Shown here piece by piece: positions 50,538 through 64,000 of a DNA stretch of 64,000 nt; the first letter of the stretch is position 1, and each line of letters starts with the position of its first letter. Source of the stretch: an uncultured Actinomycetes bacterium (GTDB lineage Bacteria; Actinomycetota; Thermoleophilia; Gaiellales; JAICJC01); assembly GCA_963760755.1 (NCBI GenBank), contig CAVXEE010000003.1:525634-589633 (forward strand). The letters are read 5' to 3'. The translations under genes and the position numbers were made by a program. The notes beneath the pieces were generated by a model that saw only the letters and a program-made list of their open reading frames with translations, did no database searches and was not told the DNA's origin.

Positions 50538-50610
50538 GGTTCTCGGCCGCCCAACACCCCGGTGACGGCACCGTGACGGCGCGGTGACGGCGGCCTGGTA
50601 CGACCTGCGC

Positions 50611-53600
50611 ATGTTGCGCTGGGTGGTGGATGCGAGCATGCGGTTCCGGCTGCTCGTGGTCGCGGTCGCGGCCGGCGTGCTGGTGGCCGGCGTGCAGCAG
50701 TCGCGGACGATGGCGGTCGACGCGCTGCCCGAGTTCGCACCGCCGTCGATCGAGGTGCAGACCGAGGCCCTGGGCCTCTCGGCGCCCGAGGTCGAGAGCC
50801 TGGTGACCCTGAACCTCGAGGAGCTCCTGAACGGCACCCCGTGGCTGCGGTCGATCCACTCCACCTCGGTGCCGGGGCTCTCGTCGATCGTGCTCACGTT
50901 CGAGCCGGGCACCGACGTGCTGCGCGCCCGCCAGCTCGTGCAGGAGCGGCTCACGCTCTCGTTCGCGATCCCCAACGTCGCCAAGCCGCCGATCATCATC
51001 CAGCCGCTCTCGACGACGAACCGGGTAATGATGGTGGGCCTCTCGTCGCGGACGGTCTCGCCGATCGAGATGGGCGTCCTCGCCCGCTGGAACATCCGCC
51101 CAGCGCTGCTGGCCGTCCCCGGCGTCGCCAACGTCGCTATCTGGGGCCAGCGCGAGCGCCAGCTGCAGGTGCAGGTGCAGCCGCAGAAGCTGCTCGCCGC
51201 GGACGTCACCCTCGACCAGATCGTGCGCACGACCGGCAACGCGATGTGGGTGTCGCCGCTGACGTTCCTGCAGGCCTCGACGCCGGGCAGCGGCGGCTGG
51301 ATCGACACGCCCCAGCAGCGGCTCGAGGTGCGGCACATCTTCCCGATCTCGACAGCCGCCGACCTGGCGAAGGTCGGCGTCGACGGGGCGGCGCCGCTGC
51401 GCCTGAGCGACGTCGCAAACGTCGTCGCCGACCACCAGCCCCTGATCGGCGACGCGCTGCTCGGAGGCGACGAGGACAGCATGCTCGTGATCGAGAAGTT
51501 CCCGAACGCGAACACGCTCGAGGTCACGCGCGGCGTCGACGAAGCGCTCGCTCAGCTGCAGCCGGGCCTCGCGGGCATCCAGATCGACACGTCGGTGTCG
51601 CGCCCCGCGACCTACATCGACGACTCGATCTCGAACCTCGAGATCGCCCTGCTGATCGGCGCCGTGCTCCTGATCGCGTGCCTCGCGGCGCTCGTGCGCG
51701 GCTGGCGCAGCGCGCTCATCGCCGTCGTCGCGATCCCGCTCTCACTCGCGGCGGCGCTGCTCGTGCTCGACCTGGCCGGGCACGGCGCGAACCTCATGAT
51801 CTTCGCGGGCCTGCTGGTCGCGCTCGCCGTGCTCGTCGACGACGCGGTCACCTGCTCGACGGCGGCGGCCGGTGGACGCGAGCGCCTGCTGGCGGCGCGC
51901 CGCAGCGTCGTCTACGTGACCCTCGTCGCGCTCGCGCCGCTCCTGCCGTACCTGTTCGCCGAGGACGTCGCCCAGGCGGTCGCCGAGCCGCTCGTGCTCG
52001 CCTACCTGCTGGCCATCATCGCATCGGTGGTCGTCTCGGTCACCGTCACGCCGGCGCTCGCCCTGCTCCTGCGCCCGCGCACCCCGGGCGCGGAGGCGGG
52101 CGGCTCGCCGCTCCTGCGCCGGCTCGAGGCGCGCTACACCCCGCTCGTCCAGCGGGTCGTGCGCGCGCCGCGGCCGGCGTTCGGGGCCTCGGCCGCCGTG
52201 CTCGTGCTGGCGCTCGTCCTGACTCCGGTGCTCCCGCAGTCGCTCTTGCCGTCGTTCCGCGACCGCGATCTCGTGGTGCGCTGGGAGGCGGCCCCGGGGA
52301 CGTCCGAGCCCGAGATGGCGCGGCTGACGGCGCGCGCAAGCGACGAGCTGCGGGCGATCCCGGGCGTGAGCCACGTCGGCGCGCATCTGGGCCGGGCCGT
52401 GCTCGGCGACCAGATCGTCGACGTCAACTCGGCCGAGCTGTGGGTGACCGTCTCGGGCTCGGCCGATTACGGCGCAACGGTCGCCGCCGTCAAGGACGCC
52501 GTTGCCGGGTACCCGGGCGTCACCCAGAGCGTCAGCACCTACCTCGACGACCGCGTGAAGCAGTTCGACACCGGCGCCACCCACGACATCACCGTGCGCG
52601 TGTTCGGGCCGGCCTTCGGGACGCTGCGCGCGACGGCGGCCCACGTGCGCGACATGCTCACCCACGTCGACGGCACGGCCGACGTGCGCATGGAGCAGCC
52701 GCCCGAGCAGCCGAACATCGAGGTCGAGGTCAACCTCGCCCGGGCCAAGCGCTATGGCCTGAAGCCCGGCGACGTGCGCCGCGCCGCGGCGACGATGCTC
52801 GCCGGGCTCGAGGTGGGGAGCCTGTTCGAGGAGCAGAAGGTGTTCCAGGTCGTCGTGTGGAGCACGCCGGATGCGCGCAGCAGCCTGACGGGGATCAAGA
52901 ACCTCCTGATCGATACGCCCACGGGCGGGCACGTGCGGCTCGAGGACGTCGCGGACGTGCGCATCAGCCCGACGCCGACGGTGATCGAGCGCGACGCCGT
53001 CTCGCGCCGCATCGACATCGGCGTGAACGCGCACGGGCGCGATCCGGGCGCCGTCGCGGCCGACATCGACCGCCGGCTGGCCGCGACCCCGATGCCGCTC
53101 GAGTACCACGCCGAGGTCGTCGGCTCCTACCGCACCGCCGAGACCCTGCACCGGCGCATGCTCGCGTCGGGCCTCGCGGCCGCGATCGCGATCTTCCTGC
53201 TGCTGCAGGCGGCGTTCGGGAGCTGGCGGCTCGCGGCCCTCCTCACCCTCACGCTGCCCGTGTCGCTCTCGGGCGGCGTGCTGGCCGCGGTCATCACGAG
53301 GGCGGACATGTCGCTGGGCGCGCTGGCCGGCTTCCTGGCGGTGCTCGCGATCGCGGCGCGCGGCGGCGTCACCGTCATCACGCGCGCCCAGGAGCTCGAG
53401 CGCGACGGCGGCGCGGCGCGGGCCGCGGCGGTCGTGCAGGCGGCCGGCGAACGGCTGGGGGCGACCGTCACGACGGCCCTCGCCACCGCCGTCGCGCTCG
53501 TGCCACTGATCGTCACCGGGACGGTCCCGGGCCAGGAGATCGCACAGCCGATCGCCGTCGTCGTCGCGGGCGGCCTGGTGACGGCGGCGCTCGTGACGGC

Positions 53601-53679
53601 GTTCCTCGTGCCAGCCGTCTATGCCGCCTCCGGTCGGCGCCCGGCGGCCCGCAGCCACTCCACCGACCCCGCCACATAA
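50611..53679 (+). CDS. RND superfamily efflux permease (CzcA/CusA-like by sequence pattern and context)
   Basis: Track ORF is 50584..53679 and the likely start is MLRWVVDASMRFRLL (50611). 12-TM RND architecture with LPEFAPPSIEVQTEALG, FPNANTLEV and LVDDAV (TM4). Paralogous to the remnant at 54424..57545. Confidence 0.85.
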   Translation: MLRWVVDASMRFRLLVVAVAAGVLVAGVQQSRTMAVDALPEFAPPSIEVQTEALGLSAPEVESLVTLNLEELLNGTPWLRSIHSTSVPGLSSIVLTFEPGTDVLRARQLVQERLTLSFAIPNVAKPPIIIQPLSTTNRVMMVGLSSRTVSPIEMGVLARWNIRPALLAVPGVANVAIWGQRERQLQVQVQPQKLLAADVTLDQIVRTTGNAMWVSPLTFLQASTPGSGGWIDTPQQRLEVRHIFPISTAADLAKVGVDGAAPLRLSDVANVVADHQPLIGDALLGGDEDSMLVIEKFPNANTLEVTRGVDEALAQLQPGLAGIQIDTSVSRPATYIDDSISNLEIALLIGAVLLIACLAALVRGWRSALIAVVAIPLSLAAALLVLDLAGHGANLMIFAGLLVALAVLVDDAVTCSTAAAGGRERLLAARRSVVYVTLVALAPLLPYLFAEDVAQAVAEPLVLAYLLAIIASVVVSVTVTPALALLLRPRTPGAEAGGSPLLRRLEARYTPLVQRVVRAPRPAFGASAAVLVLALVLTPVLPQSLLPSFRDRDLVVRWEAAPGTSEPEMARLTARASDELRAIPGVSHVGAHLGRAVLGDQIVDVNSAELWVTVSGSADYGATVAAVKDAVAGYPGVTQSVSTYLDDRVKQFDTGATHDITVRVFGPAFGTLRATAAHVRDMLTHVDGTADVRMEQPPEQPNIEVEVNLARAKRYGLKPGDVRRAAATMLAGLEVGSLFEEQKVFQVVVWSTPDARSSLTGIKNLLIDTPTGGHVRLEDVADVRISPTPTVIERDAVSRRIDIGVNAHGRDPGAVAADIDRRLAATPMPLEYHAEVVGSYRTAETLHRRMLASGLAAAIAIFLLLQAAFGSWRLAALLTLTLPVSLSGGVLAAVITRADMSLGALAGFLAVLAIAARGGVTVITRAQELERDGGAARAAAVVQAAGERLGATVTTALATAVALVPLIVTGTVPGQEIAQPIAVVVAGGLVTAALVTAFLVPAVYAASGRRPAARSHSTDPAT

Positions 53680-54423: not shown

Positions 54424-57400
54424 GTGATGCGCTTCGTCGTCCGGTCGAGCCTGCGCTTCCGCTTCATTGTGGTGGCGCTCGCCGTGGGGATGATGGCGCT
54501 CGGGGCGACGCGTGTGAAGGACATGCCGGTGGACGTGTTCCCCGAGTTCGCACCGCCGTTTGTGGAGGTGCAGATCGAGGGCCTCGGCATGTCCACGCAG
54601 GAGGTCGAGCAGCTGATCACGATCCCGATGGAGCAGTCGCTGAACGGCACGCCCGATCTCGACGTGATGCGGTCGAAGACGGTCCCGGCCTCTCGTCGAT
54701 CACGCTGTTCTTCAAGCGCGGCACCGACAGCCTGGTCGCCCGACAGCTCGTGAAGGAGCGCGTGGCGATCGCGATCCCCGGCCTGCCACGTGGCCGGCAC
54801 CCGTGGGTTCTGCAGCCGCTCTCGGCCACGAGCCGGGTGATCAAGATCGGACTCTCGTCGACCTGCTACAACCTGACCGACCTCTCGATGATCGCCTACT
54901 GGACGATCCGGGCGTCTGATGGCGGTGCCCGGCGTCGCCAACGTGAACATCTGGGGCGACCGCTGGAACCAGCTGCAGGTGCAGGCTCGACCCCGAGAAG
55001 CTGCGCGCCCACCACGTCACGCTCGACGACGGCCATGCCGGTCACATCCGACGCGCTGGACTTCGGCCTGCTCCAGTACACCGACGGCGCGAAGAACCGC
55101 ATCGGCGGGTTCATCGAGACCGCCAACCAGCGACTGGCATCCACCCGTGCGCCAGTTCGTCGAGCCGGCCGAGCTGGCCCAGATGCCGGATAGCGACAGC
55201 CGCAAGGCCGACGGCACGCCGCTGCCGCTCGGCGACGTCGGCACGATGACGTGCCGCCGCTGTTCGGCGACGCGGTCATCAACGACGGCCCCGGCCTGCT
55301 GCTCGTGGTCGAGAAGTTCCCGTGGGCGAACACACTCGAGGTCACCCGCGGCGTCGAGCGGCGCTGATGAGATGCGCCCCGGGCTACACGGGCATCCACA
55401 TCGACCCCACATCTTCCGGCCGGCCGACTTCATCGAGCAGTCGATCGACAATCTGCCCGAGGCGCTGTTGTTCGGCTGCCTGCTGGTCTGGTCGTGCTCG
55501 TCCGCGTTCCTGTTCGAGTGGCGAACGGCACTCATCAGTCTGGTGGCGATCCCGCTGTCGCTGGTCGCGGGGGCGGTGGTGCTGCAGGTGCGGGCGCGAC
55601 GATCAACACGATGATCCTGGCCGGGTTCGTGATCGCGATCGGAGTGGTCGTCGACGACGCGATCATCGACGTCGAGAATATCGTGCGCCGATTACGCCAG
55701 CATCGCGGCGACGGGCAGCCGCGCCACGTCCGTCGGCGGTCGTCCTCGAGGCGTCGCTCGAGGTGCGCCAGGCCATCGTCTACGCCACGCTGATCGTCGC
55801 GGTGGTGCTGATGCCGGTGTTCTTCATGGGCGGCGTGTCGGCCGCGTTCTTCCGGCCGCTGGCGGTGTCCTACGGCCTGGCCGTCCTGGCGTCGATGGTG
55901 GTCGCGCTCACGGTCACGCCGGTGTGCGTCTGTTGCTGCTCTCGAAGGTGCAGCTCGAGCAGCGGCGATCGCCGCTGGTGCAGTGGCTGCAGCGGGTTTA
56001 CGGGTCGTGCTGGCCACATCATCCGCCGGCCGCGACCGTGTCTGGTCGCGACGGCGGTGCTGGTGGGCATCGTGGTGCTGCCCGGCCCTGGGCGAGTCGC
56101 TGTTCCCGGACTTCAAGGAGCGGGACTTCCTGATGCACTTCGTGAACAAGCCCGGCACGGGCGGATCAGGAGGATGATGCGCATCACCGAGCGCGTCAGC
56201 CGCGAGTTCGCGCGCCATCCCGGGCGTGCGCAACTTCGGCTCCCACATCGGCCAGGCCGTCTGGCGAGGAGATCAACGGCGTCAACTTCGCCGAGGACTG
56301 GATCAGCCTCGACCCCAAGGCCGACTACGCGAAGACGCTCGACCGGATCGCGGGTGGTCGCCGCATACCCGGGCATCTTCCGTCGAACGTCGACGACGTA
56401 CCTGAACGAGCGCATCGACGAGGTGCTCGCCGGGTCGAGCGACGCGGTCGACCGTGCGCATCTTCGGTCACGACCTGAACGTCCTTCGCGACGAGGCAGC
56501 GGAGGTGCACGACGCTCTGCGCGGGATCCCGGGCGTCGTCGACCTGCGCACCGAGCTCCAGGTCGAGGTGCCCTTCAGTCAGCGTCAAGCCCGACCTCGA
56601 GAAGGCGGCCCCGTACGGCTTAAGCCCGGCGACATCCGCCGCGACGCGGCCACGATCGTCGCCGGCGAGGAGGTCTCCGACCTGCATTTCGGAACGACAA
56701 GGTCTACGACGTGATCGTCGTGGAGCACGCCGAGCGCGCGCCGCGACGTGCAGAGCATCCGCGATCTGCTCCTGGACACGCCGAGCGGTGGCCACGTGCG
56801 CCTGGCCGACGTCGCCGACGTGCACATCGGCTCGACGCCGAACCAGATCTCGCGCGAGGACGACTCGCGCCGCATCGACGTCGGCCTGAACGTGAAGGGC
56901 CGCGACCTCGGCGCCGTCGTGCACGACGTGAACGAGCGCCTCGGCGAGCTGGGCTTCCCGCGCGAGCTACCACGCCGAGGTGCTCGGCGAGTTCGCCGAG
57001 CGCCAGGCGGCCGCAGGGCGCATCTTCGTCGTTCGGGATCGCCGCGGCGATCGGGATCTTCCTGCTGCTGCAGACGTGCGTCGGCAGCTGGCGGGTGGCG
57101 ACGTTCTCGTTCCTGACGCTGCCGCTCGCGCTCGTCGGCGGCCTGCTCGCTGCCTTCGCGACCGGCGGCCTCGATCTCTCTCGGCTCGCTGGTCGGCTTC
57201 CTGACGGTGTTCGGCATCGCGGCCCGCAACGGCATCCTGCTCATCAACCACTACCAGCACCTCGAGCGCGAGGAGGGCGAGCCCTTCGGCGCCGGGCTCG
57301 TGCTGCGCGGCTCGCGCGAGCGCCTGGCGCCGATCCTGATGACCGCGCTCGCGACCGGCCTCGCGCTCGTGCCGCTCGTGATCTCGGGCGAGATCCCCGG

Positions 57401-57545
57401 GGCCGAGATCGAGTATCCGATGGCGATTGTGATCCTCGGCGGCCTGGTCACCTCGACGCTCCTGAACCTGTTCCTCGTGCCGGCGCTCTACCTGCGCACG
57501 CGCCGCCCCAGCGCCTCGGCGATCGACCCCCAGCCCGCCTCGTAG
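54424..57545 (+). pseudogene. RND efflux permease remnant broken by at least 20 frameshifts
   Basis: Track fragments 54424..54753, 54750..55193, 54919..55614, 55494..55793, 55322..56623, 55924..56133, 55983..56177, 56454..56714, 56748..57116 and 57207..57545 each carry RND segments. Examples are [31 protein letters not shown] and [18 protein letters not shown]. They are collinear with 50611..53679 but hop between frames. Confidence 0.85.
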
Positions 57546-58287: not shown

Positions 58288-58986
58288 GACTCCGCACACA
58301 CCGTCGTCCCGCACGGGGACTGGATCGCCGCCCGCACCGCCCTGCTCGCGAAGGAGAAGGAGTTCACCCGCCTGCGCGACGAGCTCTCGCAGGCCCGCCG
58401 CGACCTGCCGTGGGAGGAGGTCACCAAGGAGTACGTGCTCACCGGGCCGGACGGCCCCGAGACGCTCGCGGACCTCTTCGCCGGCCGCAGTCAGCTGATC
58501 GTCTACCACTTCATGTACCCCGAGGACTGGGACGACGGCTGCAGCCACTGCTCGTTCTGGGCCGACAACTTCGACCCGATCATCGTGCACCTGAACGCGA
58601 ACGACGTGTCGATGGTCGCCGTGTCCATCTCCCCCATCGCAAAGCTCGAGGCCTATCGCAAGCGCATGGGCTGGAGCTTCCACTGGGCCTCGGCGCACGG
58701 CAGCGACTTCAGTCGCGATTGCGGCGTCTCGTTCACGCCGGAGGAGCTCGCGGGCGAGGTCGTCTTCAACTACCGGCCCCAGCAGGTCGGGATCAGCGAG
58801 CGCGAGGGCATGAGCGTCTTCTTCAAGGACGCCGACGGCCGCATCTTCCACACCTACTCCGCCTATGCGCGCGGCATCGACATGTTCAACACCGCCTACC
58901 ACTACCTCGACACCGTGCCGCTCGGCCGCCGGGAGGACGAGGGCCGCGGCAACCAGTGGTGGGTGAAGCGGCACGACGAGTACTGA
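58279..58986 (+). CDS. DUF899 thioredoxin-fold protein
   Basis: 235 aa. WIAARTALLAKEKEFTRLRDELSQARRDLPW, LIVYHFMY, CSHCSFWADNF and FHTYS match DUF899 as I recall it. Confidence 0.75.
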   Translation: MLNDSAHTVVPHGDWIAARTALLAKEKEFTRLRDELSQARRDLPWEEVTKEYVLTGPDGPETLADLFAGRSQLIVYHFMYPEDWDDGCSHCSFWADNFDPIIVHLNANDVSMVAVSISPIAKLEAYRKRMGWSFHWASAHGSDFSRDCGVSFTPEELAGEVVFNYRPQQVGISEREGMSVFFKDADGRIFHTYSAYARGIDMFNTAYHYLDTVPLGRREDEGRGNQWWVKRHDEY

Positions 58987-59050
58987 GCGGGTGTAAGCGG
59001 CGCGCGCCGTCCCGCGACCTCTGCGGTATGTGCCCTAGCATCTGCCCATC

Positions 59051-59644
59051 GTGGGCACCGGCAGGCCACTCTCGCATGAGGAGCTCGAGCGCATGTCCGA
59101 CGCGGCGCTCGTCGCCCGCGCCCGCGCCCGCGAGCTCTACGGCACGGGCGAGCCCGGCCACGAGACGGCCAGACGCTGCGTCGCCCTCGTCTACGAGCGC
59201 CACCGCAACCTCGTGCGGGCCACCATCGCGTCCAGGGTGCCGCTGCAGGCGGTCGACGACCTGGAGGGCGAGGTGTACCTGCGGTTCGTGCGCACGGTCT
59301 ACCTGCGGCGCAGGCCGATCGACGTCCCGGCCGGGCTGCTCGTGATCATGGCGCGCCGGGTCGTCGCCACCTTCCACGACCGGCGCAAGCCGACGCCCGC
59401 CTCGCTCGACGAGCTCGACGACGTCGCGGCCGGCGAGGACGGGTATGACGAATTGGCGGCGGCAGAGGTTGCCGAACAGCTGCTGTCCGTCCTCTCCGAC
59501 CGCCAGCGGGAGGTCGTGTGGGGGCGGCTGTGGCAGGGACTCACGAGCGCCGAGGTCGCACAGCGCCTGGAGACGACGCCCGGCAACGTCGATGTGATCT
59601 TCTTCCGGGCGATGCGGCGGCTACGCGAGGAGCTCGAGCGGTGA
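59051..59644 (+). CDS. sigma-70 family (ECF-like) RNA polymerase sigma factor
   Basis: 197 aa with a GTG start (ATG 59093 is the alternative). Region 2-like VYERHRNLVRATI ... DDLEGEVYLRF and region 4 LSDRQREVVWGRLWQGLTSAEVAQRLETTPGNVDVIFFRAMRRLRE. Confidence 0.75.
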   Translation: MGTGRPLSHEELERMSDAALVARARARELYGTGEPGHETARRCVALVYERHRNLVRATIASRVPLQAVDDLEGEVYLRFVRTVYLRRRPIDVPAGLLVIMARRVVATFHDRRKPTPASLDELDDVAAGEDGYDELAAAEVAEQLLSVLSDRQREVVWGRLWQGLTSAEVAQRLETTPGNVDVIFFRAMRRLREELER

Positions 59645-60237
59645 GCGCGGAGCGCGGCTTCGCCGACTTCACGGCCGCGTGGGAGCGCGGCGAGCGGCCC
59701 GACCCGGCGGCGGCGATCGCCGCGGCGCCCGCGGGCGAGCGCGAGCCGCTCGCGGCGATGATCGCCGCCTACCTGGCCGCGCACCCCCGCACCGACGTCT
59801 CCGCCGCCGAGGTGGCCGCGCGCGCCGCCGATCCCGCGAGCGCGCCGCCGGTCGCGTGGCCGGAGCTGCTGCCGGCCCTGCGCGAGCGCACCGGCACGAC
59901 CAGGGGAGTGCTCGTGACCGAGCTGGCCGCAGCGCTCGGACACCCCGAGGCGCACGCGCAGGTCGAGGAGCACGTTCACGGCCTCGAGACCGGACAGCTG
60001 CCGGCCCGGCGCGTGCGCCCGCCGGTGGTCGCCGCGCTCGCGCGCATCCTGCACGTCCCCGAGGCGGTGCTCGAGCTGGGCCGGCGGATGCCGCCGCAGC
60101 GGCCGGCGTTCGACCTGGCCGCGCCGATGTTCCAGCGCCAGGCGCCGCTCGGCGCTCCCGAGCCGGCCGCGGCGGCGCCTGAGCCGGCCGAGCGGGTGGC
60201 GGCGATCGACGACCTCTTCACCGGCGCCGATGGATGA
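59641..60237 (+). CDS. XRE-type helix-turn-helix protein with Ala/Pro-rich flanks
   Basis: GTG 59641 overlaps the sigma stop (GTGA), within track ORF 59518..60237. HTH-like LRERTGTTRGVLVTELAAALG ... VEEHVHGLETGQLP ... VVAALARILHV. Confidence 0.6.
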   Translation: MSAERGFADFTAAWERGERPDPAAAIAAAPAGEREPLAAMIAAYLAAHPRTDVSAAEVAARAADPASAPPVAWPELLPALRERTGTTRGVLVTELAAALGHPEAHAQVEEHVHGLETGQLPARRVRPPVVAALARILHVPEAVLELGRRMPPQRPAFDLAAPMFQRQAPLGAPEPAAAAPEPAERVAAIDDLFTGADG

Positions 60238-60774
60238 GATCGCGGCGGCCCGGGCGGCGCTCGCACGGTTCACGACCACATACCGCGCCTCCGTCCCGCC
60301 CGTCGACGTCGAGGAGCTCGCTGCGAGCCTGTGCCGCCTGCGCGTGTGCGACGCCGACGACCTGTGCCCGATCGCGGGCATCGCGCCGCCGACGCCGCTC
60401 TCGGGCCTGCTGCTGCCGGCGCGGTGGGAGATCTGGGTGCGCCGCGGCGGCGCTTCACCGTCGCGCACGAGGTCGGCCACCACCTGCTGCACTCCGACGG
60501 GGCGGCGGTGCTGTGCCGGCCGGCCGACGTCGAGACCGCCGCAGGCCACGAGCGGACGCGCGAGCGCGAGGCAAACCGCTTCGCCGCCGAGCTCTTGATG
60601 CCCGAGCCGCTCGTGCGCGATGCGGCCGACCGGGACGGGCCTGACCCGATCGCGCTCGCGGAGCGCTTCGGCGTCTCCGACGTCGCCATGGGCTTTCGCC
60701 TGGTCACGCTCCGCTACCTGGAGGCGCTCCCGGTCGCGCTCCAGGCCGAGGTCGACCGCTGGCGGGGCATGTAA
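60230..60774 (+). CDS. ImmA/IrrE (COG2856) HEXXH zinc metallopeptidase with an apparent frameshift at about 60434-60456
   Basis: Track ORF 60230..60598 gives the N-terminal VDVEELAASLCRLRV ... LSGLLLPARWEIWV. Track ORF 60331..60774 gives RRRFTVAHEVGHHLLH ... EREANRFAAELLMP. Together they make a normal ImmA protein. Confidence 0.7.
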
Positions 60775-60829
60775 GGACTGGGCCTCCGGCGCGGACGTCT
60801 CCTGCACACGAACGAGGAGACGCCGCACC

Positions 60830-61714
60830 ATGCCGATGCCGCTGCCCGCCCAGCTCGACGAGCCCACCATCCACCGGGGGATCGCGGTCGTGCCGCTCTT
60901 CCCGCGCCGCGACCCGGTCGCGGCCTACACGACGCTCGACCCGGCGCTCCGACGCGGCCTGCGCATCACCGAGACGAGCGCGGCCGGCAGCGTGCCCGAG
61001 CTCGTGGTCGCAAACCCGCTCGACGAGTGGGTGCTGCTCTACGACGGCGAGGAGCTCGTCGGCGCCAAGCAGAACCGCATCCTCAACCTGACCGTGCTCG
61101 TGGCGGCCGGCTCCGTGACGCCGATCCCGGTGAGCTGCGTCGAGGCGGGCCGCTGGGATCGCCGCTCGCAGGCGTTCGCCGCCGCCCGCCACACCGCGGG
61201 GCCAGGGCTTCGGCTGCGCAAGGCGCGGGCGCTGGGCGCAGACGCGCTCGAGCGCGGCCGCGGCCAGCACGAGGTGTGGGACGCGGTGGCCGAGCAGGCA
61301 ACCCGGCGCGGCGTCGCCTCGCCGACCGCCGCGCACGCCGACATGTTCGCCCAGCACGAGGGGACGCTGGCCGAGCTGCGCGAGGCCTTCCCGGCCAGGC
61401 CGGGGCAGTGCGGCGTGATCCTCGTCCTGCCCGACGGCCATGTGTGCCTCGACTACCTGTCGCGGCCCGACGCCTACGCCGAGCACCACCGCAAGCTCGT
61501 CGACGGCTACCTCATGGACGCGCTCGACCAGCTCGATCTGCCCGCGGCCGGCATCGAGCCGGCGAACCGGCTGCTGCACCGGCTCTCGCTCGTGCCGCTC
61601 ACGCGGAGCCCGTCAGCGGGCCTCGGCATCGACCTGCGCGCCCAGACGAAGAGCGTCTCTGCGACCGGTCTCGAGCACGAGGGCGAGCTGCTGCAGCTCT
61701 CGGCATACGCCTGA
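60830..61714 (+). CDS. DUF6569 / ARPP-1-like protein (assignment from memory)
   Basis: ATG 60830 is preceded by ACGAGGAGA, within track ORF 60620..61714. HRGIAVVPLF, LRITETSAAGSVPELVVANP, VLLYDGEELVGAKQNRILNLTVLV and IPVSCVEAGRW. Confidence 0.55.
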   Translation: MPMPLPAQLDEPTIHRGIAVVPLFPRRDPVAAYTTLDPALRRGLRITETSAAGSVPELVVANPLDEWVLLYDGEELVGAKQNRILNLTVLVAAGSVTPIPVSCVEAGRWDRRSQAFAAARHTAGPGLRLRKARALGADALERGRGQHEVWDAVAEQATRRGVASPTAAHADMFAQHEGTLAELREAFPARPGQCGVILVLPDGHVCLDYLSRPDAYAEHHRKLVDGYLMDALDQLDLPAAGIEPANRLLHRLSLVPLTRSPSAGLGIDLRAQTKSVSATGLEHEGELLQLSAYA

Positions 61715-61776
61715 GCAGGGGTTTCTGATAACCCGTCATGCTGAGCCCGGGCCGATGCTAGAGTCTGGCCCCTCTC

Positions 61777-62469
61777 ATGCAGAGCCGCCTCGAAGAGCTG
61801 CTGGGCCGCGTCGAGGAGCTGACGAGTCGGCTCCTCGGGCGGGCCCAGGGGGTGCGCGGCCGCCGGCCGAACCTCGACGGCGTGCGCGACCGGCTGCACG
61901 ACCGCTCGCGCGGGTTCCCCGACCTCGGCCCCAAGCTCGGCGACGTCAAGGAGCGGCTGCGCGAGAGCGACGGCTGGCTGCTTGCGCTGCGGGCACGCGT
62001 GCGGCCGTGGCACGCCCTGCCGGCGGCGCTCGCGGCGCTGGCGCTGATCGTGGGCGGCTTCTGGCTCGGTGGCGCGGTGGGTGGCCATGCGAGCGCGGCG
62101 GCGCTCACGCGCACGGTCAAGATCAAGGGCAAGGTGATCACGATCGACGGCGCCCGCTACGTCTCGACGCCGGCGCTGACCGTGAAGGTCAAGGGCAAGA
62201 CCGTGCACATCCCCGCGCGCACGGTGAAGCTGCCCGCGAGCACCGTGATCTCCGGGACGACCGTCGCGGTCAAGGTGAACCACACCGTCTCGGTGCCGCT
62301 GACGATCTCGGTGCCGACCACGCGGACGAACACGACCACGATCAACAACACGGTCGTGACGACCGTGTTCCGCACGCAGACGCAGACTCAGACCGTCACC
62401 GGCACGACGACCGCCATCATCACCGTCACCGGCCCGACGACCACGGTCACGGTCACCGTGACGACGTAG
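61777..62469 (+). CDS. single-pass membrane protein with a coiled-coil head and a Thr/Val-rich beta tail
   Basis: 230 aa. MQSRLEELLGRVEELTSRLLG, TM helix ALPAALAALALIVGGFWLGGAVGG, then TVKIKGKVITIDG ... TVTGTTTAIITVTGPTTTVTVTVTT. Confidence 0.55.
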   Translation: MQSRLEELLGRVEELTSRLLGRAQGVRGRRPNLDGVRDRLHDRSRGFPDLGPKLGDVKERLRESDGWLLALRARVRPWHALPAALAALALIVGGFWLGGAVGGHASAAALTRTVKIKGKVITIDGARYVSTPALTVKVKGKTVHIPARTVKLPASTVISGTTVAVKVNHTVSVPLTISVPTTRTNTTTINNTVVTTVFRTQTQTQTVTGTTTAIITVTGPTTTVTVTVTT

Positions 62470-62499
62470 CTCCCGGCGCCGTCTAGGATCGGAGGCGGC

Positions 62500-64000
62500 A
62501 TGGAGAGTCGTAACGGCGAGCTGCGGTTCTCGCCCTCTGACCTGACCGAATACCTCGCCTGCGAACACGCCTCGGCGATGTCGCGCGCGGCGGCGAGGGG
62601 CGAACGGGCAAAGGCGTATGTCGGGAGCGCGTACGCCAGGCTGATCTTCGACAAGGGCGACGACCACGAGGCCGCGTATCTCGCGCGACTGCAAGCCGCT
62701 GGCCGCGACGTAGTCGAGGTGGGGCGATCCGGCGACTTCGCGGTCGGCGCGGCGCGCACGGCGGAGCTGATGCGCCGGGGCGTCGATGTGATCTACCAGG
62801 GCACCTTCGTCGTCGGCGCGTGGCGCGGTCTGGCCGACTTCGTCGAGCGCGTGGAGGCGCCCTCGGATCTGGGCGGCTGGTCATACGAGGTCGTCGACAC
62901 GAAGCTCGCCCGCGCGCACGCGGCGCCGTCGCACGTGCTCCAGCTGTGCTTCTACAGCGAGGGGGTTGCGGGCGTTCAGCGTGTGGCGCCGACGTACGCG
63001 CACCTCGAGCTCGGCTCGGGCCTGCGAGAGACGATCCGGCTGCACGAGGTGGCGCCGTACTTCCGGCGGGCCCGAGCAGGGTTCGAGGAGGCAGTCCGAT
63101 CGGAGCGGCCGACCGAGCCGTTTCCGTGCGAGCATTGCGGGTTCTGCGCGTTCCGGCGCGAGTGCGGCGAGTGGTGGCGCGCCGAGGACCACCTCTCGCT
63201 CGTCGCGTGGATCGGCCGTGGGCAGATTGGCCGGCTGACCGCCGCGGGCATCTGCACCCGTCGGGCGCTCGCGGCGCTGCCCGATGGAACGAGCGTTCCC
63301 GACCTGCGTGCACCGACGCTCGCGAACCTGCACATGCAGGCCCGGCTCCAGGTCGAGGCCGACACGGCCGAGCGCACACCGTACGAGGTGCTTCCACTCG
63401 ACCCCGATCGTGGCTTCGCGCGCCTGCCGGGCCCCTCACCGGGCGATGTCATGTTCGACCTCGAGGGTGACCCTCTGTGGACGCCGAGCCGGGAGCTGAC
63501 GTTCCTGTTCGGCCTGCTGCTTGCCGAGGAGGGCGGCTGGCGCTACGAGCCCGTGTGGGGCCACTCGGTGGACGAGGAGCGCGCGGCGTTCCAGCGCGTC
63601 GTCGATCTGCTGACGCAGCGCCTTGCCACGTATCCCGACATGCACGTCTATCACTACAGCCCTGCCGAGCCGGGTGCCCTCCAGCGCCTGATGGCCGAGC
63701 ACGCCACCCGCGAGCTCGAGATCGACGACCTGCTCCGCCGCAAGGTCATGGTCGACCTGCTCACCATCGTCCGGCAGTCGATGCGCGTCGGCGTGGAGTC
63801 GTACTCGCTGAAGCAGATCGAGCACCTTGCGGGCTTCGTGCGCGCGGCCGACATGGGCTCGGGCGCGGATGCCGTGCTCGGGTACGAGCGCTGGATCGAC
63901 TCTCGGGACGGCGCCGAGCTTGAAGGGATCGCCAGATACAACGAGGAAGACTGCCGAGCCACGCTCGCCCTGCGCGACTGGCTCGTCTCGATCCGGCCGG
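62500..64000 (+). CDS. RecB/Cas4-like PD-(D/E)xK nuclease with a 4-Cys cluster fused to an RNase H-like (DEDD) exonuclease domain; continues beyond the window (TM0106-type, usually helicase-fused)
   Basis: Absent from the ORF track because there is no stop before the window end. ATG 62500 is preceded by GGAGG. YLACEH, DFVERV, YEVVDTKLAR, CEHCGFCAFRRECGEWW, MFDLEGDP, HVYHYSPAEP and YNEEDCRAT. Confidence 0.8.
   Translation, partial: MESRNGELRFSPSDLTEYLACEHASAMSRAAARGERAKAYVGSAYARLIFDKGDDHEAAYLARLQAAGRDVVEVGRSGDFAVGAARTAELMRRGVDVIYQGTFVVGAWRGLADFVERVEAPSDLGGWSYEVVDTKLARAHAAPSHVLQLCFYSEGVAGVQRVAPTYAHLELGSGLRETIRLHEVAPYFRRARAGFEEAVRSERPTEPFPCEHCGFCAFRRECGEWWRAEDHLSLVAWIGRGQIGRLTAAGICTRRALAALPDGTSVPDLRAPTLANLHMQARLQVEADTAERTPYEVLPLDPDRGFARLPGPSPGDVMFDLEGDPLWTPSRELTFLFGLLLAEEGGWRYEPVWGHSVDEERAAFQRVVDLLTQRLATYPDMHVYHYSPAEPGALQRLMAEHATRELEIDDLLRRKVMVDLLTIVRQSMRVGVESYSLKQIEHLAGFVRAADMGSGADAVLGYERWIDSRDGAELEGIARYNEEDCRATLALRDWLVSIRP

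Follow-up and report, generated by a model that had tools for sequence, protein, structure and literature searches.

We describe a candidate transcriptional switch near the end of a 64-kb stretch of DNA from an uncultured actinobacterium (assembly GCA_963760755.1, contig CAVXEE010000003.1; hereafter the window, numbered from its first nucleotide). The window has a G+C content of about 72%, and a frame plot of G+C at third codon positions (GC3), an open reading frame (ORF) listing and translation together place six forward-strand genes between position 59051 and the window's end. The first four correspond to a sigma factor resembling the extracytoplasmic function (ECF) group, a partner protein with an XRE-type fold, an ImmA-type metalloprotease and ARPP-1, the protein formerly named DUF6569. 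These genes and their associated elements are as follows.

58992..59021, + strand: predicted ECF-type promoter of the sigma operon, TGTAAG-N18-GACCTC, with its 3' end 29 nt before the GTG start
59051..59644, + strand: ECF-like sigma-70 family factor, 197 aa (profile matches, GC3 frame support)
59641..60237, + strand: XRE-fold partner protein, 198 aa (ORF, AlphaFold2 (AF2) fold, family alignments)
60230..60774, + strand: ImmA/IrrE-family (Peptidase_M78, CapP-like) metalloprotease gene, disrupted (profile on the reconstructed protein)
60439..60447 (approximate), + strand: site at which 16 nt are deleted between two 8-bp direct repeats, GCGCCGCG (DNA alignment)
60770..60799, + strand: predicted ECF-type promoter of ARPP-1, TGTAAG-N18-GACGTC, with the TAA stop of the ImmA gene inside its -35
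60791..60826, + strand: inverted repeat of the ARPP -10 region (ACGTCTCC) and the Shine-Dalgarno sequence (GGAGACG) (RNA fold)
60830..61714, + strand: ARPP-1, 294 aa, cytoplasmic, the conserved output gene (PF20208)

The gene boundaries proposed in the initial annotation are exact in the sequence. The TGA of the sigma gene overlaps the GTG start of the XRE-like gene (GTGA at 59641-59644), the TGA of the XRE-like gene (60235-60237) falls 8 nt inside an ORF that begins with the ATG at 60230, and the ATG of ARPP-1 follows 55 nt after the TAA at 60772-60774, behind a good ribosome-binding site with the Shine-Dalgarno sequence GAGGAG. Profile searches uphold the sigma-70/ECF-like identity assigned to the first gene, which exceeds the cut-offs of Sigma70_r4_2 (E = 1.9e-10, 40.7 bits, cut-off 25.7), of TIGR02937 (47.8 bits, cut-off 42.9, residues 47-195 aligned) and of Sigma70_ECF (2e-4, 21.7 bits, cut-off 21.1). 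By profile thresholds the window's sigma factor is ECF-like (group 4), both in its sigma-4 domain and over the whole ECF profile. For the sigma-2 region, Sigma70_r2 (PF04542) gives no match at E ≤ 0.1 in the window's protein; among distant relatives, the sigma factor of locus L083 has a precomputed PF04542 match and that of L081 a weak one. ARPP-1 matches PF20208 at positions 3-297 of 297 (2.1e-77, 260.8 bits, cut-off 27). Taken over all six proteins, the searches recognize the sigma factor, ARPP-1, a nuclease and a reconstructed ImmA protein, whereas the XRE-like protein stays below threshold and a membrane protein belongs to no family. A 523-aa antisense ORF at 59299-60870 ranked first by length and GC3, but is spurious and was dropped when genes were called by codon log-likelihood and interval scheduling.

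To compare this arrangement with other genomes, an ARPP alignment was scanned against one genome per GTDB species, yielding 504 confirmed places, the best 80 of which (L001-L080) were analysed by tblastn and iterated hidden Markov models; three distant members, L081, L083 and L084, were reached through the XRE-like family. All of the best 80 are Gaiellales/Thermoleophilia-type metagenome-assembled genomes (MAGs), and the loci closest to the window come from nanopore-era MFD MAGs. The initial annotation had asked whether sigma, XRE, ImmA and DUF6569 genes occur together in other genomes, and we find their homologues syntenic in three gene orders. In the colinear order, sigma, XRE-like, ImmA, ARPP and membrane protein genes follow one another on the same strand (the window, L001-L010 and L061, and with an insert L011 and L012). 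In the divergent order, found at about 35 loci, the sigma, XRE-like and ImmA genes read in that sequence away from ARPP on the opposite strand. A third order, ARPP followed by sigma and XRE-like genes, occurs in the distant L081, and in L083 and L084 a sigma gene, an XRE-like gene, a small ORF and an M78 gene stand together with no ARPP nearby. In L084 (NCBI GCA_038207745.1) the cassette is divergent from a 693-aa superfamily 1 (SF1) helicase (1-2079, - strand) instead of ARPP, RecD2-like by reading of its translation only.

The sigma gene is present in 49 of 78 related loci, and at about 31 of 41 loci its stop codon overlaps the start of the XRE-like gene as ATGA or GTGA. Where at least 7 kb of sequence lies upstream of ARPP (47 loci), 36 loci have an XRE-like gene within 7 kb and 27 of these also have ImmA. 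Because the distant members differ in their context, we take the sigma/XRE pair as the core, ImmA as a frequent third member and ARPP as the usual partner. A sigma gene, an XRE-like gene and usually an ImmA gene beside ARPP constitute a real conserved unit, far beyond chance, and this module is chromosomal, vertically conserved and order-wide. The initial annotation had drawn all six genes of the window into one undescribed module; the first four apparently stand as such, while the membrane protein and nuclease genes prove peripheral. We found no published description of a sigma/XRE/ImmA/ARPP architecture, nor a published precedent that links an ECF sigma factor to ImmA, COG2856 or M78.

Some loci depart from these patterns. 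The colinear-type locus L011 (6736-8100) has fragmented sigma, XRE-like and ImmA genes (73, 65 and 86 aa) and a second, intact sigma gene of the same family divergent from ARPP, reflecting either regulator decay and replacement or sequencing errors. Small toxin-antitoxin (TA)-like pairs, PIN/VapC-like with RHH- or AbrB-like partners as judged by eye, and other variable genes are recurrently inserted at the module, either in the sigma-ARPP interval or in the one that separates ImmA from the nuclease (L014, L022, L026, L028, L033, L036, L039 and L041), and the module's borders look like hot spots for insertion.

When the sequences preceding the sigma gene and ARPP are aligned, the same ECF-type element is seen ahead of both, with the consensus (C/T)GTAAG-N18/19-GAC(G/C/T)(T/C)C. 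A pattern search of the 64-kb window returns this motif twice, where 0.00 matches are expected, and a scan of 58800-62700 returns neither a consensus sigma-70 promoter nor an intrinsic terminator. A relaxed pattern precedes ARPP in 73 of 81 loci and the sigma gene in 37, and matches elsewhere 30 more times in 2.55 Mb; about 33 such matches are estimated from base composition, and we therefore claim no further regulon members. The spacer is invariant within each class, at 18 nt in the colinear loci and 19 nt in the divergent loci. In the latter, each strand of the short intergenic region carries CGTAAG-N19-GACTCC, so oriented that every gene has a copy directed toward it, and the sigma gene begins only about 6 nt after the -10 region, which suggests that its mRNA is leaderless. 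ARPP copies without a nearby sigma gene still keep the motif and so are probably controlled in trans. Paired promoters of this kind are to be expected where an ECF sigma factor controls its own operon and has ARPP, as predicted here, for its main and locally its only target; that the sigma factor drives both its own promoter and that of its target is a reading of the sequence motif alone.

Between the -10 of the sigma promoter and the GTG start, positions 59030-59047 of the window hold a further block, ATGTG(G/C)C(C/T)TAGCATCTG. The block containing TAGCATCTG is kept in the colinear class only (L001-L010 and L061), and its TAGCAT could be a second, housekeeping-type -10 that would give a near-leaderless transcript.

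The common promoter bears on one alternative, which is that the locus is an accidental neighbourhood of a housekeeping ECF sigma operon and unrelated genes, or else a three-component TA system. The inconsistent linkage of the membrane protein and nuclease genes, and the housekeeping-like character of the genes upstream, would agree with such an origin. However, the genes are linked in three orders and share a promoter motif in 73 of 81 loci, and profile searches with Pfam, NCBIfam, PADLOC and PHROGs find no toxin family in any of the six proteins. We consider this explanation very improbable, and the TA-like character that the initial annotation had proposed is not borne out.

We now consider the partner protein, whose annotation as an XRE-type helix-turn-helix (HTH) protein holds by fold and not by sequence. 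HTH_31 scores 14.9 bits (E = 0.033) against a cut-off of 27, so that the protein falls short of Pfam HTH_3/HTH_31 membership, and all but one of 120 listed homologues are without a precomputed Pfam domain. The family is small, with only 590 members in 1.84e9 representative proteins, nearly all about 200 aa long and matched end to end; its profile finds among PDB sequences only a designed helical protein (E = 1.6). The AF2 model has a pLDDT of 86.7 overall and above 90 over residues 73-148, and lays out an N-terminal four-helix domain (1-62), a five-helix XRE-type HTH domain (73-148), a disordered linker and a short C-terminal helix. Foldseek finds matches to residues 73-148 only, namely C.AhdI, the CapH N-terminal domain (7t5u), the 434 and P22 repressors and SinR at target-normalised TM-scores of 0.6-0.74; the probabilities are 0.9-0.99 with E-values of only 0.3-1, and DdrO (6jq1) reaches a TM-score of 0.39. 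CapH and DdrO are the substrates of CapP and IrrE. The model thus predicts a five-helix XRE fold, and no known anti-sigma (ASD) fold is in the Foldseek list. The N-terminal domain is conserved across the colinear and divergent classes. Within the otherwise variable linker, R166 is kept in 39 of 42 sequences, in most of them just after an aromatic residue (Phe or Tyr), and forms the motif [F/Y]xR (F164-R166, nucleotides 60130-60138). The C-terminal helix carries IDDLFTG at residues 189-195, and its motif D-x-LF-x-G is invariant with or without an adjacent ImmA gene. The protein is a putative anti-sigma factor or repressor and a putative protease substrate.

Whether this protein would act on the sigma factor or on DNA is the main point on which explanations diverge. 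The XRE-like proteins are acidic (pI 4.5-5.7), and in the colinear class the presumptive recognition helix reads QVEEHVHxLETG within an HTH domain of net charge -3 to +2. Together with the overlap of start and stop codons, these properties lead us to favour protein-protein control of the sigma factor over operator binding. The same preference follows from the upstream alignments, which contain no conserved operator common to the sigma and ARPP promoters, and from the sigma and XRE-like proteins being the pair that diverges most between paralogous modules: two complete divergent-type modules in one MAG (L021 and L043, assembly CAZOMP01) are 57% identical in sigma, 49% in the XRE-like protein, 70% in ImmA and 68% in ARPP, the regulators having diverged faster than the enzymes.

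The principal competing explanation makes the XRE-fold protein a conventional DNA-binding repressor of the ImmR, DdrO or CapH kind, seated at the ARPP promoter or nearby and removed by ImmA cleavage, with the sigma factor as an activator in a cascade from repressor to sigma to target, as Xre and the sigma-like Xpf do in the PBSX element of Bacillus. Its XRE/Cro-C1 fold does resemble DNA-binding repressors, at the TM-scores given above; the third HTH helix of the divergent class is rich in Lys, Arg, Tyr and Gln; all characterised substrates of ImmA-family proteases are DNA-binding repressors (PMC13228613); and in many loci the palindrome GACTCC-N11-14-GGAGTC, perfect over 10 bp in L030, overlaps the ARPP -10 region and the Shine-Dalgarno sequence. 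The basic divergent-class HTH and this palindrome are why we keep a repressor model as the main rival. Yet no comparable palindrome is present at the sigma promoter, some two helical turns separate the half-sites, an uncommon distance for dimers of XRE proteins, and part of the complementarity arises automatically from a CTCC in the -10 and a GGAG in the Shine-Dalgarno sequence. The acidic recognition helix of the colinear class is a poor fit to an operator, and the strict stop/start overlap with the sigma gene and the extra conserved N-terminal domain better fit a protein partner. We consider conventional repression unlikely, although it deserves a place beside the anti-sigma reading.

One apparent shortcut through the module was discarded. 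A 684-aa protein, P0250, looks like a fusion of XRE, ImmA and ARPP; its segments lie in shifted frames, and it is a read-through gene call on an error-rich contig.

The third gene differs from its initial description as a HEXXH protease encoded by the ORF at 60230. That ORF stops at 60598 after 122 aa, and the HEVGH motif (60466-60480) is in another frame, that of 60331; the GC3 plot places the switch of coding frame near 60430. A DNA alignment with five relatives accounts for this: L001-L004 and L006 all read GCGCCGCG-ACGAGCCG-GCGCCGCG, while the window retains a single GCGCCGCG. With the 16 nt present, the sequence around the junction would be ACGAGCCGGCGCCGCG. A loss of 16 nt between 8-bp repeats is the usual signature of slippage. 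The relatives all have one continuous ImmA ORF (165-190 aa, about 181 aa), from which the window differs by this deletion, and programmed frameshifting was rejected on these grounds. The window holds no second ImmA copy in its 64 kb. The deletion inactivates the protease gene, and this copy of the module has lost its adjacent trigger, unless the assembly is in error. Such an error is possible because the closest loci derive from nanopore-era MFD MAGs; a heavily frameshifted RND-pump gene beside its intact paralogue indicates in turn that real pseudogenes occur in the window.

Once reconstructed, and only then, the protein matches Peptidase_M78 (PF06114) at 1.7e-16 and 60.5 bits (cut-off 22). 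Its best PADLOC match is CapP (5.6e-24), a profile covered at positions 19-170 of 242 only. Across the family the HExxH is invariant and LEREAN is kept, and the window's gene encodes HEVGH and EREAN, so that the M78 hallmarks, HExxH and a downstream glutamate, are both there. In all 30 aligned homologues, a CRPxD motif also places a Cys 12-18 residues beyond the second His of HExxH. In CapP, C114 lies 13 residues after H101, is followed by D117/D118 and serves as an autoinhibitory cysteine switch (PMC13228613). The same study places cleavage of CapH at F82-R83, by which the [F/Y]xR motif in the linker of the XRE-fold protein becomes a plausible cleavage site. The M78/CapP match, the invariant HExxH, the conserved CRPxD cysteine, LEREAN and the CapH/DdrO-like fold of the partner all support a protease and substrate relationship.

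The output of the module is ARPP-1. It is predicted to be an enzyme with a conserved Cys and Gln that acts on ribose or other sugar moieties (Iyer et al. 2022, PMC9503650), and C103, Q81 and other residues are invariant in our 24-sequence alignment. Across the order, ARPP sequences share 51-59% identity and about 80 alignment columns are invariant, so the protein is not fast-evolving; it is often multicopy. The AF2 model is confident (pLDDT 90.1, pTM 0.89), and a Foldseek search of it against the PDB returns noise only (probability < 0.5, TM-score < 0.3), which accords with Iyer et al. Contexts given for ARPP in PMC9503650 are those centred on ADP-ribosylglycohydrolase (ARG), HIRAN, WYL and deacetylase, and a sigma/XRE/ImmA context is not among them. 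Profile searches find neither a rhodanese-phosphatase partner nor a Nudix or WYL regulator in the window, and tblastn with the Pimelobacter ARG finds ARG in only 1 of 81 loci (L016) and none in the window. In L016 the ADP-ribosylglycohydrolase lies about 1.3 kb downstream of ARPP, which echoes the ARG context in the literature. A Tc-R-P/DSP-type cysteine phosphatase stands at +2 in only 6 Gaiella loci, and RecX at -1 in 6 loci. L015, L032, L049, L073 and other Gaiella loci have ARPP without an adjacent sigma gene, with the phosphatase at +2 and RecX at -1, an arrangement that recalls the phosphatase context in the literature.

The ARPP leader of the window may add a second layer of control. 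Its RNA (60776-60835) folds at -29.3 kcal/mol (z = -4.04), and 0 of 200 shuffled sequences are as stable. Comparable complementarity between the -10 region and the Shine-Dalgarno sequence exists in many related loci: a -10 of GACTCC or GACGTCTCC and a Shine-Dalgarno sequence of GGAGTC or GGAGACG form an inverted repeat of 6-10 bp in L030 (a perfect 10 bp), L029, L038, L015 and others. About a third of the divergent-class ARPP leaders read GGAGTC, where about 5% are estimated by chance. Similar complementarity in divergent loci cannot be accounted for by operon read-through, and the inverted repeat may be an operator in the DNA, or two motifs may coincide by chance.

From these observations we propose that the sigma factor, the XRE-fold protein and ImmA form a dedicated three-protein transcriptional switch with one conserved output gene, ARPP-1, a proposal that we rate slightly better than even. 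The ECF-like sigma factor would recognise both promoters, that of its own operon, giving positive autoregulation, and that of ARPP-1; the promoter pair is known from motif conservation, and recognition is deduced from it. The XRE-fold protein, made in fixed proportion to the sigma factor through the overlapping codons, would keep the system off, in our favoured version by binding the sigma factor directly, as an anti-sigma factor does, and in the alternative version by repression at DNA. By analogy with CapP, the Zn-protease, with its Cys at the position of the CapP cysteine switch, would cleave the linker of the XRE-fold protein, plausibly at [F/Y]xR, and thereby cut off the C-terminal helix with its conserved IDDLFTG. 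If IrrE, CapP and ImmA are a guide, the trigger may be DNA damage, or single-stranded DNA (ssDNA) arising from stress or infection. The released sigma factor would then amplify its own operon and produce a burst of ARPP-1, a cytoplasmic, enzyme-like protein. In colinear loci, read-through transcripts would contain both arms of the -10/Shine-Dalgarno hairpin, which would mask the ribosome-binding site and leave ARPP untranslated. In contrast, a transcript that starts at the ARPP promoter would have its first nucleotide within or beyond the 5' arm, leaving the Shine-Dalgarno sequence free for translation. Consequently, the hairpin may insulate ARPP from basal transcription of the operon.

Several observations weigh against this proposal. 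The bulk of the loci (L001-L080) represents one bacterial class, and part of the synteny reflects shared ancestry. The protease (181 aa; family 165-190 aa) is without the ssDNA-binding HTH and GAF domains of CapP and IrrE, and for this reason we do not file it as CapP, and its signal may differ. An adjacent ImmA is lacking at about a quarter of the sigma/XRE pairs and is broken in the window; ImmA may therefore be an accessory, and the sigma/XRE pair may work with a protease encoded elsewhere. The HTH domain of the divergent class is mildly basic (net +1 to +6) with the recognition helix KVRRYYQQLEGG, which fits DNA binding, and the palindrome GACTCC...GGAGTC over the ARPP -10 region and Shine-Dalgarno sequence is compatible with classical repression.

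A more specific form of the proposal can be put forward only tentatively. In it, the XRE-fold protein would be a new class of cytoplasmic anti-sigma factor that is destroyed by a cysteine-switch protease of the ImmA/CapP type, a signal of damage or infection would be turned into a self-amplifying burst of ARPP-1, and ARPP-1 would have an unseen fold and act on the sugar moiety of damaged or modified nucleic acid. If the XRE-fold partner is indeed an anti-sigma factor, it would be a new class within that family. Two switches that are usually treated as separate, the proteolysis of XRE repressors by ImmA, IrrE or CapP and the release of ECF sigma factors from anti-sigma factors, appear here to be wired in series. 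The arrangement offers a testable read-out: a well-defined promoter whose spacer is invariant is present twice, and only one target gene is conserved. ARPP-1 has so far been described computationally only and has no solved structural relative, and its position as the sole conserved output of a dedicated inducible switch would give direct access to its function. The module is abundant in the Gaiellales and Thermoleophilia, which are widespread and poorly studied soil actinobacteria.

What the proposed switch would respond to is a further question, and two readings compete. In the first, the module is a LexA-independent response of Thermoleophilia to DNA damage or stress, resembling IrrE/DdrO, and ARPP-1 is a repair or detoxification enzyme that acts on the sugar moiety of damaged or modified DNA or nucleotides. 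Regulators of the IrrE, CapP and WYL types sense ssDNA from damage (PMC13228613), the literature links ARPP with WYL transcription factors and with HIRAN, which binds 3' DNA ends (PMC9503650), and genes of DNA metabolism recur as neighbours (the TM0106 nuclease-SF1 helicase, RecX at -1 in 6 loci, the SF1 helicase of L084). The chromosomal, vertical and order-wide conservation of the module also suits a cellular response. On the other hand, these neighbours are variable and could reflect synteny, the nuclease gene of the window is without a sigma-type promoter, and the protease is without the GAF groove that binds ssDNA. We judge this reading to be plausible while falling short of even.

In the second, the module is an anti-phage or abortive-infection system with ARPP-1 as its effector, with or without the nuclease-helicase, and the triad senses infection or DNA damage as CapH/CapP does. 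CapP is the best PADLOC match of ImmA, and ARPP was defined inside predicted ARG-centred conflict systems with restriction endonuclease-fold (REase) and helicase genes (PMC9503650). DUF6569, ARG and the TM0106 nuclease are adjacent on a Pimelobacter plasmid, TA genes (PIN with an antitoxin-like partner, by reading of sequences) and a transposase are inserted around modules, and regulators are displaced across lineages, with WYL in the literature and the sigma triad here. Against this, no catalogued system in PADLOC-DB v2 matches with all its components: only ImmA (CapP, RmrA) and the nuclease (weakly, Cas4/DruK) have matches, while the sigma factor, the XRE-like protein, ARPP and the membrane protein have none. 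The last three have no PHROG match either, neither 50,697 phage records nor IMG/VR contain ARPP and only 3 plasmids do, ARG is confined to the one locus, ARPP is slow to evolve and the window's neighbouring genes are ordinary. The initial annotation had placed DUF6569 in an effector position; its place as the output behind a sigma-type promoter stands, but a defence role is not established. We regard an anti-phage system as doubtful, and a DNA-damage or stress response as at least as likely as defence. If the module did protect against phage, it would add a new regulator type and a new effector to the defence catalogue.

Among the closest described counterparts of the triad is CapH-CapP (Lau et al. 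2022, bioRxiv 10.1101/2022.04.27.489752; PMC13228613). Both have an M78 Zn-peptidase with HExxH and a glutamate as third ligand, a cysteine at the place of the CapP cysteine switch, 12-18 residues beyond HExxH, and an XRE-fold substrate made of an HTH domain, a linker and a C-terminal helix, and both adjoin the operon that they control or would control. E. coli CapP has 288 aa, with a GAF domain at 182-288 (PMC13228613), whereas the protease here has about 180 aa and is without the HTH and GAF domains that make up the ssDNA groove of CapP. The putative substrate here is an acidic protein with one more conserved domain at its N-terminus, and its gene is coupled in translation to that of a sigma factor. 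CapH-CapP has as its output a CBASS or other immune operon under derepression, in contrast to ARPP-1 with its predicted sigma-specific promoter.

IrrE/PprI-DdrO of Deinococcus and ImmA-ImmR of ICEBs1 and phages likewise rely on a COG2856 protease to induce a regulon, which it does by cutting an XRE repressor close to the repressor's C-terminal domain. They differ from the present module in having no sigma factor, in that DdrO and ImmR bind palindromic operators, none of which is evident at the sigma promoter here, and in the GAF domain of IrrE. ImmA, at about 170 aa, is similarly small to the protease described here.

Pairs of ECF sigma and anti-sigma factors, such as the actinobacterial SigD-RsdA type with its GTAAC...GAT promoters, resemble the module in a sigma factor of two domains, in a promoter that is autoregulated (here by prediction) and combines a -35 of GTAA type with a short -10 of GA type, and in a partner gene that is co-transcribed and translationally coupled. 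Such pairs are often activated when the partner undergoes regulated proteolysis. To our knowledge, the anti-sigma factors described so far have folds of the ASD, zinc-ASD or membrane-anchored kind, and site-1/site-2 or Clp proteases degrade them, whereas the partner here has a predicted XRE fold and the protease is of the ImmA family. PBSX, a defective prophage of Bacillus subtilis, combines the Xre repressor, the sigma-like Xpf and the ImmA-like XkdA in a damage-inducible cascade. An ImmA-family protease, an XRE protein and an ECF-like sigma factor are thus common to both; PBSX differs as a prophage late-gene switch with another gene order, in which Xre represses xpf at operators and ARPP does not occur.

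The ARG-centred, ARPP+WYL and ARPP+HIRAN systems (Iyer, Burroughs, Anantharaman, Aravind 2022, PMC9503650) share with the module the ARPP-1 domain with its invariant Cys and Gln, an adjacent dedicated regulator of negative or inducible action and, at times, a REase-fold nuclease and a helicase, as with TM0106 in the window and on the Pimelobacter plasmid pA-N39. They differ in that ARG occurs in 1 of 81 loci here and the R-P phosphatase in 6 loci, and in that the sigma/XRE/ImmA triad takes the place of a one-component Nudix or WYL regulator.

Two further genes lie between ARPP-1 and the window's end.

61777..62469, + strand: single-pass membrane protein, coiled coil at the N-terminus, C-terminus rich in Thr and Val (one transmembrane segment)
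62500..64000, + strand: TM0106-family RecB-like nuclease, N-terminal 500 aa, cut by the window end (TIGR03491, RNase_H_2)

The sequence of the first agrees with its description as a membrane protein with a coiled-coil head and a Thr/Val tail, and searches of Pfam, NCBIfam, PADLOC and PHROGs return no match. It stands at +1 from ARPP in 12 of 78 loci, all of them colinear. The spacer between ARPP and this gene (61715-61776, and the same place in L001-L011) contains a conserved TGGTA(C/G)AGT, resembling an extended -10 element, 12 nt before the ATG, and about 35 nt upstream a conserved GATAACC(C/A)GTCA box. These elements suggest that the gene has an independent promoter and possibly a regulator site. 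Because the gene is found in a single clade and is preceded by an extended -10-like element of housekeeping type, we do not count it among the core; it is a clade-specific neighbour, probably in a separate transcription unit. A role as anti-sigma factor or sensor was rejected, as the protein is absent from the divergent class and its gene has its own promoter-like element.

The initial annotation had also pointed to a Cas4/RecB-type nuclease that gene calling had missed. A long ORF does run from 62500, and its product is a RecB-like protein of the TM0106 family (262.1 bits against TIGR03491, cut-off 97.45; RNase_H_2 at 1.1e-24). The Cas4 assignment fails, since TIGR00372 gives 24.7 bits against a cut-off of 65, and no cas genes were seen among the neighbours. 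Full-length relatives have about 1100 aa, with an SF1 helicase and AAA_11/AAA_12/AAA_30 domains. A nuclease-helicase gene lies downstream of the triad in 6 of the 31 loci with enough flanking sequence (about 20%), and the window's copy has no promoter motif. On the Pimelobacter plasmid, DUF6569, a hypothetical gene, ADP-ribosylglycohydrolase and the TM0106 nuclease stand in a row, so that the ARPP-TM0106 pairing recurs in an unrelated lineage. Iyer et al. (PMC9503650) describe ARPP systems with REase and helicase accessories, and this pairing agrees with them. The nuclease is a loosely associated neighbour of the module.

The genes around the module in the window are ordinary and include DUF899, ArsR, AHSA1 and RND pumps. 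An intact 1031-aa RND/CzcA-like gene (50584-53676) directly precedes a second one (54424-57545, + strand) that is broken over three frames, with pieces at 54424-54750, 56454-56711 and 57207-57545, and the second is likely a decayed pseudogene. In L007, an intact orthologue of the broken gene terminates just ahead of the sigma promoter.

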